From positions 1 through 10,261 of the forward strand of contig CATMOE010000094.1 of the NCBI GenBank assembly GCA_950072105.1: a stretch of DNA of 10,261 nt. Reading direction: 5' to 3'. A program made the position numbers and the translations under genes. Origin of the DNA: an uncultured Dehalococcoidia bacterium (lineage in GTDB: Bacteria > Chloroflexota > Dehalococcoidia > Lucifugimonadales > UBA3495). Under the pieces are notes generated by a model. The model was not told where the DNA came from. It saw only the letters and a program-made list of their open reading frames with translations, and ran no database searches. Shown here one piece after another: positions 3,284-10,155 of this stretch (the first letter of the stretch is position 1; the number at the start of each line of letters is the position of its first letter).

Positions 3284-3313
3284 TTGTTTAGTAGTACATG
3301 TGTTCTATATAAT
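3284..3313 (+). promoter_or_regulatory. Sigma70-type promoter of the mutagenesis operon
   Basis: TTGTTT (3284-3289), 18-bp spacer, perfect TATAAT (3308-3313) in an AT-rich patch. Confidence 0.7.
3292..3307. promoter_or_regulatory. Putative LexA (SOS) box
   Basis: TAGTAC-ATGT-GTTCTA is one mismatch from the GAAC-N4-GTTC box used by Firmicutes, Actinobacteria and Chloroflexi LexA. It sits between -35 and -10 upstream of an imuB-dnaE2 cassette, a class known to be LexA-regulated. Confidence 0.8.
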
Positions 3314-3324
3314 GCTAGCCCGGC

Positions 3325-3360
3325 TGAGGTGGGGCCGAGCTTTCAGCCGTCAGCCGTCAG
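3325..3360 (+). repeat. Short dispersed repeat with TCAGCCG heptamers (copy 1 of 2)
   Basis: TGAGGTGGGGCCGAGCTTTCAGCCGTCAGCCGTCAG aligns with 5307-5337. Confidence 0.6.
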
Positions 3361-3397: not shown

Positions 3398-3432
3398 GAA
3401 ATCCCCCCAACCTCCCTTTACGAAAGGGGGGC
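3398..3432 (+). repeat. Palindromic REP-like repeat type A, copy 1 (left inverted flank of DUF559 gene)
   Basis: GAAATCCCCCCAACCTCCCTTTACGAAAGGGGGGC. 9-bp stem with ACG loop. Confidence 0.92.
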
Positions 3433-3452
3433 TATAAAGAGGTTTGGTGCCG

Positions 3453-3890
3453 GTGCTTAGATACGACCACAACTTAAAGCAAGTGGCGCGTGGCTTGCGT
3501 AGCGGGATGACCCGTAGCGAGCAGATGTTGTGGCCGCGATTGCGCGGGAGGCAGATTCAAGGCGTTCAGTTTTACCGGCAGAAGCCCATTGGTGCATACA
3601 TTTTGGACTTTTACGCGCCTAAAGCAAAGTTGGTGGTGGAATTAGATGGACTGCAACATCTGGAATTAGAGCATGGGGAGAATGATGCAAGGCGAGATGC
3701 GTACCTGGCGGGCGCGGGGCTAAAAGTGCTGCGTTTTAGCAACACACAGGTAATCCAAGAACTCGATGAGCTAGTGAATCTGATCGCTAATGCTCTTCCA
3801 GAACGAACGCGCCCATCTCCCCATTTCGTAGAGGTAACCCTGCTTCCCCCCTTTCGTAAAGGGGGGCCAGGGGGGATTTCCCACCCCTAA
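3453..3890 (+). CDS. DUF559 / Vsr-like endonuclease domain protein
   Basis: Motifs ARxLRxxMTxxExxLWxxLR, FYRQKPIGAYILDFYAP, LVVELDGxQH and DARRDAYLxxxGLKVLRFSN. GTG 3453 preferred because AGAGGT lies 9 nt upstream; 3444 and 3447 are alternatives. The C-terminal tail reads through repeat copy 2. Confidence 0.9.
   Translation: MLRYDHNLKQVARGLRSGMTRSEQMLWPRLRGRQIQGVQFYRQKPIGAYILDFYAPKAKLVVELDGLQHLELEHGENDARRDAYLAGAGLKVLRFSNTQVIQELDELVNLIANALPERTRPSPHFVEVTLLPPFRKGGPGGISHP
3846..3880 (-). repeat. Palindromic repeat type A, copy 2 (right inverted flank, inside the DUF559 3' end)
   Basis: Reverse complement is GAAATCCCCCCTGGCCCCCCTTTACGAAAGGGGGG. Confidence 0.92.
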
Positions 3891-3891
3891 C

Positions 3892-5073
3892 ATGAACATC
3901 GCTTGCGTACTTATCACCCACCTTCCGGTGAAAGCGGAGCAGCGCCGGGACCCGGCGCTGCTGGGGCGGCCGGTGGTTATTACCGAGAGCTTCGGCTCCA
4001 AGCAGGTAGTCTTGGACAGTTCTCCAGAGGCTCGGGGAGTTACCGCCGGGATGTCCCTCCAAGAAGCCGTGTCCCGGAGCAAGGATACAGTTTTGCTCCG
4101 CGCCGACGAGCCCTATTACGACTCGGTTTTCACCGAGATGCTCACTTCTCTGGAGGGAAGGAGCCCCCTGGTGGAAAAGGCTGATTTGGGCTGCGCCTAC
4201 GTGGGGTTGGATGGGCTGGAAGCCATGTATGGTGGCGAAGCCAGGCTCATAACATCCTTGCTCCAAGCGGTGCCTCACCAGTTCAATCCCCGTATCGGCG
4301 TGGCCACGGGGAAATTCCCGGCCTACGTCGCCGCGGTAACCAGCAGTGGCGGACGGGCCAGCAAAGCGCCGGATGACGTGGCCGGGTTCCTGAAGGAGTT
4401 TTCCATAGACCTGCTGCCTCTGTCGTGGCAAAACAAGACCCGGTTGCACCACTTCGGGTTGCACACCTTGGGGCAACTGGCCGCCCTGCCGGCAGGCTCC
4501 ATCCAGGCCCAGCTAAGGGCCGAGGGAAGCCGGGCTTGGGCGCTGGCCAAGGGCATCGATCCCAGTCCGCTGGCATCCTGGCAGCACGAGGAAGTCGTCG
4601 CGGAGTTTCTCACCTTCCCTTCGCCCACCGTCACCCAGCACGCCATCCTAACGGCCTTGGCAACGTTGCTTGGCAGGGCTTTCGTTCGCCCGGAGATCAA
4701 GGGCCGGTACGTTCGCACCGCTACCATTGAGAGTCGCATCGTCCGGCACACTCCATGGGTCAAGCACTTCCCCTTCAAGGAGTCGGTGGGCAGCAAGGAA
4801 AGAGCCCTGTTCTCCCTGAAAAGCCGGTTGGACAACCTGCAACTGCCCGGCCCTTTGGAGGACATGAAGCTAACCCTGGGCGGGATCACCGGCGAGTCGG
4901 GCATCCAGTCCAGTCTTTTCTCGGATGTCCGCAAACGAGAGCAACTCAAGGAAATGATGCGGCAACTGGAAGTCCTCTTGGGTTGTAAGCCCCCCATATA
5001 CCAGATGAAGGAAGTGGAACCTTGGTCCAGAATCCCCGAGAGGCGGCAAGCTCTAGTCCTATTCGATCCCTAA
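3892..5073 (+). CDS. imuB: Y-family DNA polymerase homolog, ImuB-like (predicted catalytically inactive)
   Basis: IMS-domain motifs (GRPVVI, SPEARGVTAGMSLQEA, SPLVE, RIGVATGKFPAYVAA, LHHFGLHTLGQLAALP), but the DxD and SxDE catalytic carboxylates are replaced (ACVLITH, ADLG). Clamp motif QSSLF. Located upstream of dnaE2. Confidence 0.85.
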   Translation: MNIACVLITHLPVKAEQRRDPALLGRPVVITESFGSKQVVLDSSPEARGVTAGMSLQEAVSRSKDTVLLRADEPYYDSVFTEMLTSLEGRSPLVEKADLGCAYVGLDGLEAMYGGEARLITSLLQAVPHQFNPRIGVATGKFPAYVAAVTSSGGRASKAPDDVAGFLKEFSIDLLPLSWQNKTRLHHFGLHTLGQLAALPAGSIQAQLRAEGSRAWALAKGIDPSPLASWQHEEVVAEFLTFPSPTVTQHAILTALATLLGRAFVRPEIKGRYVRTATIESRIVRHTPWVKHFPFKESVGSKERALFSLKSRLDNLQLPGPLEDMKLTLGGITGESGIQSSLFSDVRKREQLKEMMRQLEVLLGCKPPIYQMKEVEPWSRIPERRQALVLFDP

Positions 5074-5309
5074 ACCTGCCTGCTCCTATACAGGTTGAAG
5101 AGGATGCCCATCAACGGCCACTGGCTATCAGCCTGCGGCGCCGCAGGCTGGGGGTAGCCTCGGTAGACGACCTGTGGGAGATCGACGAAGAGTGGTGGCG
5201 GGAGAATCCAATCGTCCGGAGATATTACCAATTGACCACCGAAGATGGCAGGCCCATGACCATCTTTCGGGACCTCGTTTCCGGGGAATGGTACCGGCAG
5301 GGAGGGTGA
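5022..5309 (+). CDS. Small standalone protein resembling the ImuB C-terminal domain
   Basis: WEIDEEWWRENPIVRRYYQLTTEDGRPMTIFRDLVSGEWY resembles the WW...RxYY...DG....FRD...W pattern at ImuB C-termini. TTG start with AAGGAAG upstream, overlapping imuB by 52 nt. Confidence 0.75.
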   Translation: MVQNPREAASSSPIRSLNLPAPIQVEEDAHQRPLAISLRRRRLGVASVDDLWEIDEEWWRENPIVRRYYQLTTEDGRPMTIFRDLVSGEWYRQGG

Positions 5310-5337
5310 GGGGGACCGAGCTATCAGCGGTCAGCGG
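5307..5337 (+). repeat. Short dispersed repeat with TCAGCGG heptamers (copy 2 of 2)
   Basis: TGAGGGGGACCGAGCTATCAGCGGTCAGCGG aligns with 3325-3356. Confidence 0.6.
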
Positions 5338-5340
5338 GGC

Positions 5341-5375
5341 GAAATCCCCCCAACCCCCCTTTACGAAAGGGGGGC
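5341..5375 (+). repeat. Palindromic repeat type A, copy 3
   Basis: GAAATCCCCCCAACCCCCCTTTACGAAAGGGGGGC, one substitution from copy 1. Confidence 0.92.
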
Positions 5376-5508: not shown

Positions 5509-8500
5509 ATGAACTCAAGCTACGCCGAACTGCATTGCCACAGCAATTACTCATTCCAGGAGGGGGCCTCATCGGTTGAGGACCTGCTGTTTCGCGCCAA
5601 GGATCTGGGCTACCGGGCTTTGGCCCTTACCGACCACGACAATCTGTGCGGGGCCATGCACTTCGCCCAGGTTGCCCGGACCCTGGAGATTCAAACCATC
5701 ACCGGAGCGGAGATCACCCTCGATGACGGCTCCCACCTCACCCTGCTGGCCGAGACGCAGCAAGGGTACAGCAACCTGTGCAACATCATCTCCTACTCCT
5801 ACATATCCGGCGGCCGCAAAAACCCGGCCTTCGACATCAAGCACTTGTCCGAGATGGCTCAAGGACTCATTCTGCTTACCGGATGCCGTCAGGGACAGAT
5901 CCCCAGCCTGGTAACGGAGGGTCGCCACCGGGAGGCCGAGGACCTGTTGCGGCAGTACCTAGACTGGTTCGGCACGGCCAACGTCTTCGTGGAACTGCAA
6001 CACAACCTGGTCCAGGGAGACACTCCACGCATCCGGCAGCTGGTGGCCTTGGCGAATAGATACGGCGTCTCTCCAGTCGCGACCAATAACGTTCACTACC
6101 ACATCCCGGAACGCCACCGGCTCCAGGACGCCCTGGTGGCCATCAGCCACAACCAGAGCCTGGAAGAAACCCACCGGCAGCGCCGGCCCAACCGCCATTT
6201 CCACCTCAAGTCTCCGGAGGAAATGGCGGAGCTGTTCCTGGAGTGTCCCCAGGCCGTTAAAAACACTCTGCGTATCGCCGACCGGTGCGGCTTCGATATC
6301 ACCAGGGACATGGGGTACCGCTTCCCCGATTACCCGGTGCCTGAAGGGTTCACTCCCCAAAGCTTCCTGGAGCACCTGTGCCTCCAGGCCGCCAAGCGCC
6401 GCTACGGCAGCATCACCGATAGGGTGCAAAACCGGCTGGACGAAGAGTTACGTCTGATAAATAGGCACAACCTGTCGGGGTTTTTCCTGATCTACTACGA
6501 AATCATACAGATGGCCCGGGAGATCATGATAGAGCTTGGCCTGAGCGACGTGGAGATACCCTTGGAAGAGCGCCCTCCCGGAAGAGGCCGCGGTTCTTCA
6601 GTGTCCATGCTGGTGGGCTACTTGATCGGCTTGTCTCACATCGACCCCCTGAAATACAACCTCTCTCTGGAACGTTTTCTCTCCGACGATATGGGCTCCG
6701 TCCCCGATATAGACCTGGACTTTCCCCGGAACATCCGGGAGGAGTTGATCAAACGCGTGCATGAAAAGTGGGGCTGGGACCACGCCGCTCTCTCCGGAAT
6801 GATCAGCACCTACAAGATGAAGGGGGCGATACGGGACCTGGGTAAGGCGTTGGGGTTACCCAAGCAAGACGTGGACAAGCTGGCCAAGAGGGTGGATGCC
6901 CACAGCGCCCGGGAACTAAAGCTGGAGATGCAGGAGTTACCCGAGTTTCGGGACAAGACCGATGCCCCGGTCTGGCGCGACCTCATCGACCTGGCGGACC
7001 AACTGGATGGGTTTCCCAAGTACCTGGCCCAGCACCCCGGCGGCATGATCATCAGCTCTTCCCCCCTCACCGACATGGTTCCGGTGCAGCAGTCGGCCAT
7101 CGACGACCGCTACATCTGCCACTGGGACAAGGACAGCATCGACCAGGCCGGTTTCGTGAAGATCGACTTCCTGGCCCTAGGGGCGCTGTCTCAGATGCAA
7201 GAATGCCTTCAGCTTATCGAGGAGCGGGACGGTCACTACATCGACCTGAGCCGCATCGACTTTGACGACCAGGCAGTCTACGGAATGATGCACCAGGCCG
7301 ACACCATCGGAATATTCCAGGTGGAGTCGGCGGCCCAGATGCAGACCGTCCCCCGCATCAGACCCGTCAACCTCACCGACATGGCCTACGAGGTAGGAGC
7401 GGTCCGCCCCGGAGTCGGCGTCAACGACGGTGTCACCCAGTTCATACAACGGCGCACCCAGGGCATTCCATGGGACTACGACCACCCATTGGAACAGCGG
7501 GCCCTGGAGCGGACCTTGGGGATTATCCTCTTCCAGGATCAGGTGAACCATGTGGCGCGGGACGTAGCCGGATTCACTCCCCTTGAGGCCGACCAACTCC
7601 GCCGGGCCTTCGGCCGTAAGCATAACCAGTCTCTGATCGCTTTTTACTGGGAAAAGTTCCTTCAAGGAGCCAGTGAGCGGGGCGTTCCCGGAGACGTGGC
7701 CGAGAAGATATTCAAAAAATTCAATGGACAGTACATGTTTCCCGAGTCCCACGCCTTCGCCTTTGGCGCAACGGCCTACCACATGGCCTGGCTTAAGTAC
7801 TACCATCCGTTGGAGTTCTTTGTCGCCATCTTCAACCAGCAACCCATGGGATTCTACAACACAGAGACTCTAAAAGAGGACGCTAGGCGGCATGGCATCA
7901 CCGTCATTAACCCCGACATCAACCTTAGCATGGAAAAGTGCACCATAGTGAGTGGTGTACGCCCCCCCTTTGATCCCCCCTTCGTAAGGGGGGAAATAGG
8001 GAGATACACAAAGGAGGAGAGAGGCGAGTCTAATAGCTCTCCTTTCGTAAAGGGGGGTTGGAGGGATTTCCGGCCTTCACCCCCTACCCCCTCTCCTTCA
8101 GGGAGAGGGGAGGCCGAAGGCCGGGGTGAGGGCTGCGATGCCCTCCTCTTAGGCTTTCTCTACGTGAAAGGCGTGGGAAAATCTGCGGCGTCCTCCATAG
8201 TCCAGACAAGAGACAGCGGACGACCGTTCAGCGACCTGGGCGACGCCATGGAACGGACCGGGTTGCAGCGGGAAGCCCTGGAGAACCTGGTAGCCGCCGG
8301 AGCCTTCGACTCCCTGACTCCAGACCGGCGGAATGCGTTGTGGGAGGTGGGGTTGCGTTACCGCCCACATGGCTATCAACAAGCGCTGCCTCTTCCCGTT
8401 GAGCAGGACATGGCCGAACTGCCCAAACAGACCGACTGGGAAATTATGATGGACGAATACCGCACCATGCGGCTTCATCCCAAGGGACACTTGATGACCA

Positions 8501-8832
8501 TGCTGCGGCCTTACCTGGGCCAGGATGTGTTAAGCAGCCAGGACCTTCTGGGACGGGCCGATGGCGAAGTGGTGACCGTGGCCGGCATGGTGATCCGTCG
8601 GCAACGCCCCTTGTCCAAGGCTGTGTTTCTCACCCTGGAAGACGAGTTTGGGCACATCCCCATCGTGGTATGGCCCCAGGCTTTCAAGAAGCACCGCATG
8701 GACATAAAGGAGCCGGTGCTGATAATCCGAGGCCAGGTTTCCCGCCGTGACGGCACCATGAACATAATAGCCCAGCACATTCGAGGCACCCAGGGATTGC
8801 CCCACATGCCCAAGGCCCGTAGCTGGCAGTAG
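5509..8832 (+). CDS. dnaE2: Error-prone DNA polymerase III alpha subunit DnaE2 (ImuC), with an in-frame repeat-derived insertion
   Basis: PHP domain (YAELHCHSNYSF, ALTDHD, ATNNVHY), GRGRGSS, catalytic PDIDLDF and KIDFL, FPESHA, NQQPMGFY, OB-fold VAGMVIRRQRP, and C-terminal ARSWQ (variant of the DnaE2 SRxF[HR] motif). Downstream of imuB. Confidence 0.95.
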   Translation: MNSSYAELHCHSNYSFQEGASSVEDLLFRAKDLGYRALALTDHDNLCGAMHFAQVARTLEIQTITGAEITLDDGSHLTLLAETQQGYSNLCNIISYSYISGGRKNPAFDIKHLSEMAQGLILLTGCRQGQIPSLVTEGRHREAEDLLRQYLDWFGTANVFVELQHNLVQGDTPRIRQLVALANRYGVSPVATNNVHYHIPERHRLQDALVAISHNQSLEETHRQRRPNRHFHLKSPEEMAELFLECPQAVKNTLRIADRCGFDITRDMGYRFPDYPVPEGFTPQSFLEHLCLQAAKRRYGSITDRVQNRLDEELRLINRHNLSGFFLIYYEIIQMAREIMIELGLSDVEIPLEERPPGRGRGSSVSMLVGYLIGLSHIDPLKYNLSLERFLSDDMGSVPDIDLDFPRNIREELIKRVHEKWGWDHAALSGMISTYKMKGAIRDLGKALGLPKQDVDKLAKRVDAHSARELKLEMQELPEFRDKTDAPVWRDLIDLADQLDGFPKYLAQHPGGMIISSSPLTDMVPVQQSAIDDRYICHWDKDSIDQAGFVKIDFLALGALSQMQECLQLIEERDGHYIDLSRIDFDDQAVYGMMHQADTIGIFQVESAAQMQTVPRIRPVNLTDMAYEVGAVRPGVGVNDGVTQFIQRRTQGIPWDYDHPLEQRALERTLGIILFQDQVNHVARDVAGFTPLEADQLRRAFGRKHNQSLIAFYWEKFLQGASERGVPGDVAEKIFKKFNGQYMFPESHAFAFGATAYHMAWLKYYHPLEFFVAIFNQQPMGFYNTETLKEDARRHGITVINPDINLSMEKCTIVSGVRPPFDPPFVRGEIGRYTKEERGESNSSPFVKGGWRDFRPSPPTPSPSGRGEAEGRGEGCDALLLGFLYVKGVGKSAASSIVQTRDSGRPFSDLGDAMERTGLQREALENLVAAGAFDSLTPDRRNALWEVGLRYRPHGYQQALPLPVEQDMAELPKQTDWEIMMDEYRTMRLHPKGHLMTMLRPYLGQDVLSSQDLLGRADGEVVTVAGMVIRRQRPLSKAVFLTLEDEFGHIPIVVWPQAFKKHRMDIKEPVLIIRGQVSRRDGTMNIIAQHIRGTQGLPHMPKARSWQ
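7962..7995 (+). repeat. Palindromic repeat type A variant, copy 4 (intragenic)
   Basis: C-tract followed by the TCCCCCCTT-CGT-AAGGGGGGA hairpin. Encodes PPFDPPFVRGE within DnaE2. Confidence 0.75.
8037..8070 (-). repeat. Palindromic repeat type A, copy 5 (intragenic)
   Basis: The reverse complement of 8041-8071 is identical over 31 nt to 10120-10150. Encodes SPFVKGGWRDF. Confidence 0.9.
8071..8135 (+). repeat. Palindromic repeat type B (intragenic, branched)
   Basis: Outer stem 8071-8083/8123-8135 encloses CCCCTCTCCT-TCA-GGGAGAGGGG and GGCC-GAA-GGCC. Encodes PSPPTPSPSGRGEAEGRGEG. Confidence 0.8.
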
Positions 8833-10120: not shown

Positions 10121-10155
10121 GAAATCCCTCCAACCCCCCTTTACGAAAGGGGGGC
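10121..10155 (+). repeat. Palindromic repeat type A, copy 6
   Basis: GAAATCCCTCCAACCCCCCTTTACGAAAGGGGGGC, beginning 28 nt after the LLM stop codon. Confidence 0.92.

Follow-up and report, generated by a model that had tools for sequence, protein, structure and literature searches.

The BoxC/PIT/TM repeats have been known since the 1990s, but they have so far lacked a known function or mobiliser, according to the main text of Holder et al. (2015; PMC4666352). In that text, BoxC, PIT and TMECO are described as markers of unstable loci whose triplexes are stable in vitro; folding in vitro is shown for TMECO only, and neither an in vivo footprint nor mobility genes around TMECO were found. The same main text names no partner gene or nuclease ("nuclease" and "ycjD" have 0 occurrences), and Table S2 of its supplement, which lists the TMECO-flanking genes, may name ycjD (PMC4666352). 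A literature search that reached few subscription papers found no paper linking DUF559 to repeats of the BoxC/TM kind.

In REPtrons (RAYT/TnpA(REP) genes plus REP/REPIN repeats), as in the system described here, a single-copy gene is flanked by genome-wide dispersed repeats, each gene lineage has its own repeat, and the evidence for mobilisation is indirect, according to the available text of PMC5581495. The first-pass annotation had called the present locus REPtron-like: this holds for the layout but not for the enzyme, which is Vsr-like PD-(D/E)XK (PF04480) and not HUH/Y1, with no strand-transfer chemistry known. The enzyme itself can be compared with: (i) the EDxHD homing endonuclease I-Bth0305I (PDB 3R3P), with which it has in common the catalytic fold and the E-D-x-H-D residues, as well as, if our reading is correct, selfish spread by cut-and-repair (available text of PMC3239194); and (ii) Vsr, Caulobacter VsrA and Escherichia coli YcjD, with which it shares the DUF559 domain and a matching residue spacing (available text of PMC12907096 and PMC3424549). 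In its accessible sections, the VsrA paper mentions neither palindromes nor flanking repeats (PMC12907096).

The window, i.e., the whole stretch of 10,261 nt that was analysed, belongs, as a single contig, to an assembly of 4.08 Mb and 92% completeness (hereafter G000). It contains the following features:

3294..3312, + strand: predicted LexA-type operator, GTAC-N4-GTTC, beside a TATAAT -10 box (sequence)
3339..3360, + strand: relic heptamer repeats, AGCCGTC-type, a second element family using the same slots (sequence)
3398..3431, - strand: left arm, type-A class II triplex motif (hairpin 3411-3431 plus outward mirror tail, one mismatch)
3444..3890, + strand: DUF559 (Vsr/EDxHD-like) predicted nuclease, clade A (PF04480, E=3.9e-33)
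3810..3833, - strand: candidate decayed inner (tails-in) arm (better-kept remnant at the same place in G010)
3846..3880, + strand: right arm, type-A class II triplex motif (perfect, outward tail)
3892..5073, + strand: imuB-like Y-family polymerase gene, host operon (PF00817)
5022..5309, + strand: conserved 95-aa ORF between imuB and dnaE2 (weak DUF6504 match, E=0.04)
5341..5375, - strand: gene-less type-A triplex motif in slot 2, where the sister G001 has a clade-B DUF559 cassette
5509..8832, + strand: dnaE2, host operon (profile match)
7949..8131, + strand: in-frame insertion in dnaE2, ~183 bp, approximate boundaries, three triplex motifs inside
7962-7994, 8037-8070 and 8075-8110: motifs within the dnaE2 insertion, of types C, A and B, respectively
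10121..10154, - strand: gene-less type-A triplex motif after a monooxygenase gene (sequence and scan)

The two arms are inverted, with their tails facing outward, and bracket the DUF559 ORF; the arm-gene-arm unit, which had been estimated at ~480 bp, measures 483 bp. In the triplex geometry scan each arm scores 9 triads, with 1 mismatch on the left and 0 on the right. The start used by the DUF559 family is probably the GTG at 3453, and the C-terminal extension of the ORF continues through the right arm to a stop 1 nt before the imuB ATG. The four gene-less copies previously proposed at 5341, 7962, 8037 and 10121 are all present, but those at 7962 and 8037 lie inside dnaE2 instead of between genes, and the former is of type C. 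The dnaE2 insertion is common to G000 and G001 and absent in 11 other orthologues.

The predicted operator would drive DUF559, imuB, the 95-aa ORF and dnaE2. A similar operator-like box is found upstream of imuB in most relatives, and recA and lexA of G000 have partial LexA-box matches only; the available text of PMC3323433 gives the motif as GAAC-N4-GTTC and places the dnaE2 cassette under LexA control. The operon (imuB-like gene, conserved 95-aa ORF and dnaE2; 3892-5309 for the first two) lacks imuA. At the contig end (10159-10261), about six tandem 17-mers contain the same operator-like GTAC-N4-GTTC motif as at 3294, an array that is probably an assembly loop. Contigs from RNA libraries cover the DUF559 gene in 3 of 4 runs with DNA carry-over uncontrolled, and are thus not taken as evidence of expression. 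In the present lineage, the cassette now behaves as an inherited single-copy gene and would be co-transcribed from the predicted SOS promoter.

By its sequence, the repeat is a class II triplex motif of the BoxC/PIT/TM kind and not a REP, as had been supposed: it has a mirror third strand and lacks the GTAG/CGTC tag that defines REPs (PMC3733652). The tail is the mirror image of the purine arm of the hairpin, with G opposite G and A or T opposite A; this pattern was read from the flanks of DUF559 genes in 40 relatives, where it recurs in several different sequence types. As in the BoxC/PIT/TM repeats, in so far as these are described in the available literature, (i) a C-rich stem is followed by a loop, a G-rich stem, a short loop and a mirror G-rich third strand; and (ii) the copies are dispersed, number tens to hundreds, often form inverted pairs and are patchy among relatives. 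Two differences from the described repeats can be mentioned: the G000 arms carry the variant CCCCCCTTT/AAAGGGGGG and, compared by eye, depart from the TMECO pattern CCCTCNCCC-N3-6-GGGNGAGGG-N3-GGGNGAGGG; and G000 copies occur also in frame within genes. In-frame triplex motifs were seen in other long ORFs of G000 (C15:25445-25558, C61:4939, C21:37955 and C3:91306) and, with gene names assigned by eye, in a ValS-like gene of G018 and an acyl-CoA-ligase-like gene of G004 (L245, L246).

The scan looked for a pyrimidine stem, a loop, a purine stem, a loop of 1-6 nt and a mirror third strand with <=1 mismatch, accepting G.G, A.A or T.A triads. It returned 179 hits at 170 sites of G000 versus 0, 0, 1, 0 and 0 in five dinucleotide shuffles, so that the motif is over-represented and dispersed in the genome. 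Roughly typed, the 170 sites comprise 65 of type A, 53 of type B, 43 of type B' and 9 of type C; the 19-mer singled out by the first-pass annotation has 39 exact matches and 81 with <=2 mismatches, counted on both strands, where palindromes can count twice.

The mirror relationship was tested on 104 distinct type-A units anchored only by the stem and the tail end, which keeps the test non-circular. An A in the purine arm was matched by an A at the mirror position of the tail in 44 of 48 cases, versus 10 of 576 for a tail A opposite an arm G and 1 of 48 in direct orientation. Among the 44 mirrored pairs, 35 occupy the outermost position, where they may be of common descent; at inner positions, the count is 9 of 9, spread over four positions. 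Templated copying yields direct or inverted repeats and is not known to yield mirrors, and hence this co-variation points to selection on a three-stranded structure. Both A.A and T.A triads are present in the repeat units, which is consistent with a purine motif on the G-rich strand. Since the purine-motif triplex does not form in RNA, according to the main text of PMC4666352, single-stranded DNA would be the likely substrate. The exact variants of the G000 arms are expected to fold as triplexes.

Regarding the orientation of the arms, the innermost ones are tails-in on both sides in 37 of 60 non-edge cross-phylum relatives, and a tails-out pair is present in 0 of 60. As tails-in is the usual arrangement, the G000 cassette has likely lost its inner arms (3810..3833 is likely one of them in decayed form) and, on this comparison, its tails-out layout is a derived state.

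The association between repeat and gene extends well beyond this locus. G000 has a second DUF559 gene, located after uvrB, with type-C arms on each side, so that both genes are bracketed, each by its own arm type; the genome holds only two inverted pairs 300-600 bp apart, and each encloses a DUF559 gene. Among 65 relatives from public genomes, of which 62 have full flanks, 43 show two-sided arms and 58 arms on at least one side. In total, 182 DUF559 loci were pooled, in sets seeded by the two G000 query proteins; removal of 21 partial, broken or duplicate rows left 161, of which 149 have full flanks. Two-sided arms were found at 96 of these 149 non-edge loci versus 2 of 2100 control windows in the same loci, and at least one arm at 135 of 149 versus 107 of 2100. 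Visual inspection shows this module at many of the remaining loci as well, its second loop containing a hairpin.

On a quick maximum-likelihood tree (LG+G4, 112 columns), arm type follows protein clade across 10 phyla: a 67-row clade (SH-aLRT 94) consists of 62 type-A, 4 unscored and 1 type-B loci. Type A is spread over 10 named host phyla, in which the arms stay intact beside the gene as the neighbouring genes change, and Chloroflexota contain clades A, B and C. The labels require 30 changes on the tree versus 86 when shuffled (0/200), which agrees with the proposed co-variation of DUF559 phylogeny and repeat sequence, as the bracketing counts do with the proposed association across genomes; in any case, such clade-to-type clustering can arise from linkage alone. 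Viral carriage was considered and rejected: the best viral match has 45% identity, 3 of 16 full-length matches are bracketed, and arms were found beside 0 of 49 distant partial ones. In E. coli, the DUF559 gene ycjD is followed at ~170 bp by one intact TMECO-type motif, and a decayed arm overlaps the stop of the gene.

Some further loci deserve description. In type I R-M operons of Proteobacteria, clade-A cassettes lie directly after hsdR, in most cases with hsdS on their other side (L074, L084, L090, L092, L105, L111, L117 and L118). A 20-row DUF559 clade (L165-L206) has arms whose second loop contains a hairpin; this longer form of the module may be related to the Caulobacter CIR repeats. 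At L222 and L235, DUF559 and its arms are in frame in an ORF of >1100 aa, between pterin-binding and B12-binding domains (methionine-synthase-like).

Within 40 relatives, which are not independent of each other, a clade-A gene or pseudogene is accompanied by type-A motifs in 7 of 7 genomes and was found in 0 of 26 genomes free of such motifs, and a clade-B gene or fragment is accompanied by at least 13 type-B motifs in 14 of 14 genomes. The converse does not hold. Type-A motifs without a clade-A gene occur in 7 genomes, including G020 (114), G018 (95) and the single-contig G019 (18), and at least 10 type-B motifs are present in 7 of 26 genomes without a clade-B gene, among them G000, with ~96 type-B sites. 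Gene loss, incompleteness or another mover can explain these orphan repeats.

The protein is a single domain of ~115 aa whose gene is intergenic in an operon, and its closest DUF559 relatives are in Chloroflexota records. Residues E26, D55, E66, D68, H72 and D81 are intact in G000 and at least 98% conserved; the catalytic EDxHD set, as mapped by spacing, would be E26, D55, D68, H72 and D81. The 29-13-4 spacing agrees with the VsrA-to-Vsr mapping in the available text of PMC12907096 and with the EDxHD set in that of PMC3239194. A predicted model (pLDDT 86) matched in Foldseek 3HRL (E=1e-7), 3R3P, i.e., I-Bth0305I (E=1e-4), and Vsr, 1VSR (E=0.05); the predicted fold is thus closer to 3HRL and 3R3P than to 1VSR. 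The dN/dS of 0.16-0.20 within the genus indicates purifying selection. Allele replacement of the G000 copy is not claimed: its dS to the sister is 0.66 versus 0.15 for imuB, but as much divergence is seen in 42 of 713 genome windows. Unlike the EDxHD homing endonucleases, the G000 protein and gene show no NUMOD/HTH domain and no intron or intein context, and the family has many unrelated insertion sites and bracketing triplex arms.

The Vsr-like residues and fold, the VsrA-ScmA genetic link (available text of PMC12907096) and the about ten clade-A loci inside type I R-M operons could point to a nickase of the ordinary Vsr type, which acts on T:G mismatches in the service of DNA methyltransferases, with the nearby repeats as incidental insertions. 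Nevertheless, incidental insertions fit poorly with 96 bracketed loci out of 149 versus 2 control windows out of 2100 and with arms that are type-specific; moreover, unlike Vsr and VsrA, the G000 gene has no linked cytosine methyltransferase, no methyltransferase gene of any kind being found within the 10,261-nt window, and the fold is nearer to 3HRL and 3R3P than to 1VSR. This explanation is therefore deemed very improbable.

As regards other candidate movers, Y1/RAYT transposases (PF01797) number none in the 92%-complete G000 and occur in 4 of 40 relatives at E<=0.001, with five matches in total: three are RAYT-like with REPs of their own, one is IS200-like and one is apparently spurious. 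Consequently, RAYT/IS200 was rejected as the mover, and the expectation that no such transposase would carry the same repeat held. The RAYT-like gene of G018 has a type-A module ~120 bp beyond it, on one side only. Another partner gene in repeat-rich genomes was likewise sought and rejected, as 7 arm pairs in G020, G018 and G004 enclosed ordinary genes.

The history of the locus can be followed in 13 genomes through two operon slots: slot 1, between the promoter and imuB, is occupied by a cassette in 6 and by gene-less arms in 1, and is empty in the other 6; in slot 2, before dnaE2, 3 genomes have a cassette, 7 have other elements or repeats, and the remaining 3 are empty. Empty promoter-imuB sites, which had been predicted among relatives, do exist. 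The outgroup genomes are empty, as is one genome (G008) that is nested among carriers. G023 has the clade-B cassette in slot 1 and G001 has it in slot 2 (79% over 434 bp, with homology ending near the arms), and the clade-A cassette shows the reverse placement; the swapped slots indicate that cassettes have moved. None of the outcomes that the first-pass annotation had named as contrary to its proposal (lack of association across genomes, a RAYT or IS200-type transposase flanked by the same repeat, or lack of empty orthologous sites) has occurred.

Defined ends and a target duplication had also been expected from alignment with relatives, but the ends are ragged. Out of 73 orthologous site comparisons, the 12 clean-enough motif-bearing indels (G000 versus G001/G002) revealed no target-site duplication, only junction repeats of 0-2 nt and ragged flanks. 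No target duplication is evident at the dnaE2 insertion, and the 4-nt AAAT repeat around the G001 slot-2 cassette is a single case, indistinguishable from microhomology. Near-identical duplicate cassettes were not seen: the G004 pair is 71% identical and the two G000 genes 36%. In three metagenomes of different studies no credible empty allele was found, and the gene is at about flank depth. Excision or inversion in populations was considered and rejected: the joints have sides of 22-35 nt, explained by other repeat copies, and raw reads were at ~2x. The locus hence differs from an insertion sequence or MITE, with neither sharp ends with target-site duplication nor near-identical copies of an autonomous unit. 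The autonomous, self-mobilising unit originally envisaged is not upheld, given (i) the missing target duplication; (ii) a single copy per clade in G000; (iii) the missing empty allele in the three metagenomes; and (iv) relatives with up to 114 type-A motifs and no detectable cognate gene.

The same slots receive other elements. Heptamer (AGCGGTC-type) arrays occur at 3339-3360 and 5318-5337 of the window, at 6242-6616 of L056, and in L061 and L053; in relatives, where they are longer, they bracket a four-helix-bundle gene (TIGR02436) in G008 and a similar, broken one in G015. These arrays and the genes they bracket may constitute a second repeat-plus-gene system. Among the sites listed for G000 versus G001, several unrelated families of palindromic repeats replace one another at the same intergenic positions within the genus. 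In slot 2 of G020 (L058, about 4400-5150), ~750 bp next to type-B motifs resemble a group II intron end. The G004 and G023 cassettes are nested in heptamer arrays, with homology extending into the arrays, and so they may have been carried passively.

Such nesting, the other units and repeats that collect in the slots, the repeat-rich genomes without a cognate gene and the lack of target duplication would suit a passenger role, in which another factor acting in trans, or host recombination, moves the repeats, DUF559 was captured between two of them, and the match between clade and type reflects old linkage. However, the 7 arm pairs of G020, G018 and G004 give no other gene family that is consistently bracketed, the sole inverted pairs 300-600 bp apart in G000 enclose DUF559, the arms stay with the gene in 10 phyla while its neighbours change, and the Y1 genes have REPs of their own. 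A passenger role is accordingly regarded as unlikely.

Both G000 genes adjoin DNA-damage genes (imuB and uvrB), which, with purifying selection and a single copy, could speak for a service to the host: the nuclease would resolve or repair stalled structures at triplex repeats, the flanking arms would be regulatory (ribosome-binding tail, autoregulation), the repeats would spread because they block replication and are therefore unstable, and the gene would be retained as useful. In line with this, TM sites are unstable loci at which polymerase is blocked in vitro (main text of PMC4666352), and the DUF559 protein VsrA of Caulobacter is induced by damage and has activity in vivo (available text of PMC12907096). 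Across phyla, nevertheless, no SOS bias is apparent: the 113 neighbour ORFs of 61 clade-A loci gave 0 matches to the imuB, dnaE2, uvr or recA families, the neighbours being hsdR/hsdS, hydrogenase and metabolic genes, mostly co-oriented. This variety indicates that the SOS setting is lineage-specific or local, and SOS targeting was ruled out as a family trait. Besides, a host service leaves the two inverted arms and the slot swapping unexplained, and genomes with >90 repeats persist without the gene. Taken as a whole, the host-service explanation appears rather improbable.

The best reading is a nick-and-repair system of nuclease and triplex repeat, REPtron-like in layout but not a REPtron. Direct support exists for the cassette, the mirror co-variation, the matching of clade and type, purifying selection, the empty sites and the slot relocation. 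Across phyla, every lineage of the enzyme retains a repeat variant of its own, and for this reason the partner responsible for spreading the repeats, missing until now, is likely this enzyme. On balance, although narrowly, we consider it probable that they spread as follows: (i) the DUF559 enzyme would recognise its own repeat variant in single-stranded DNA; (ii) as a predicted nuclease, it would nick this cognate motif; and (iii) host repair and recombination would copy gene-less repeats to new sites and, rarely and by the same route, the whole cassette. A PD-(D/E)XK nickase is not known to join strands, and integration would therefore depend on functions of the host; the ragged ends and the lack of target duplications are consistent with this.

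A broader version of this nick-and-repair reading is put forward tentatively, at somewhat less than an even chance. According to it, DUF559 proteins would be structure-specific nickases that read a triple helix of single-stranded DNA, each clade with its own triad code; as the autonomous partner of the BoxC/TM repeats, they would represent a widespread, undescribed class of transposase-free mobile elements spreading by nick-and-repair, here under SOS control beside an error-prone polymerase.

If the nick-and-repair reading is true, the system would stand beside REP/RAYT as a second pairing of repeat and enzyme, built on unrelated chemistry, and its enzyme may be a bacterial protein capable of recognising an intrastrand DNA triplex. 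The same reading would also account for the proline/glycine-rich in-frame peptides left by the repeats in genes such as dnaE2. A cognate nuclease family would make the origin of the BoxC/PIT/TM repeats directly testable, also in E. coli K-12 by means of ycjD.
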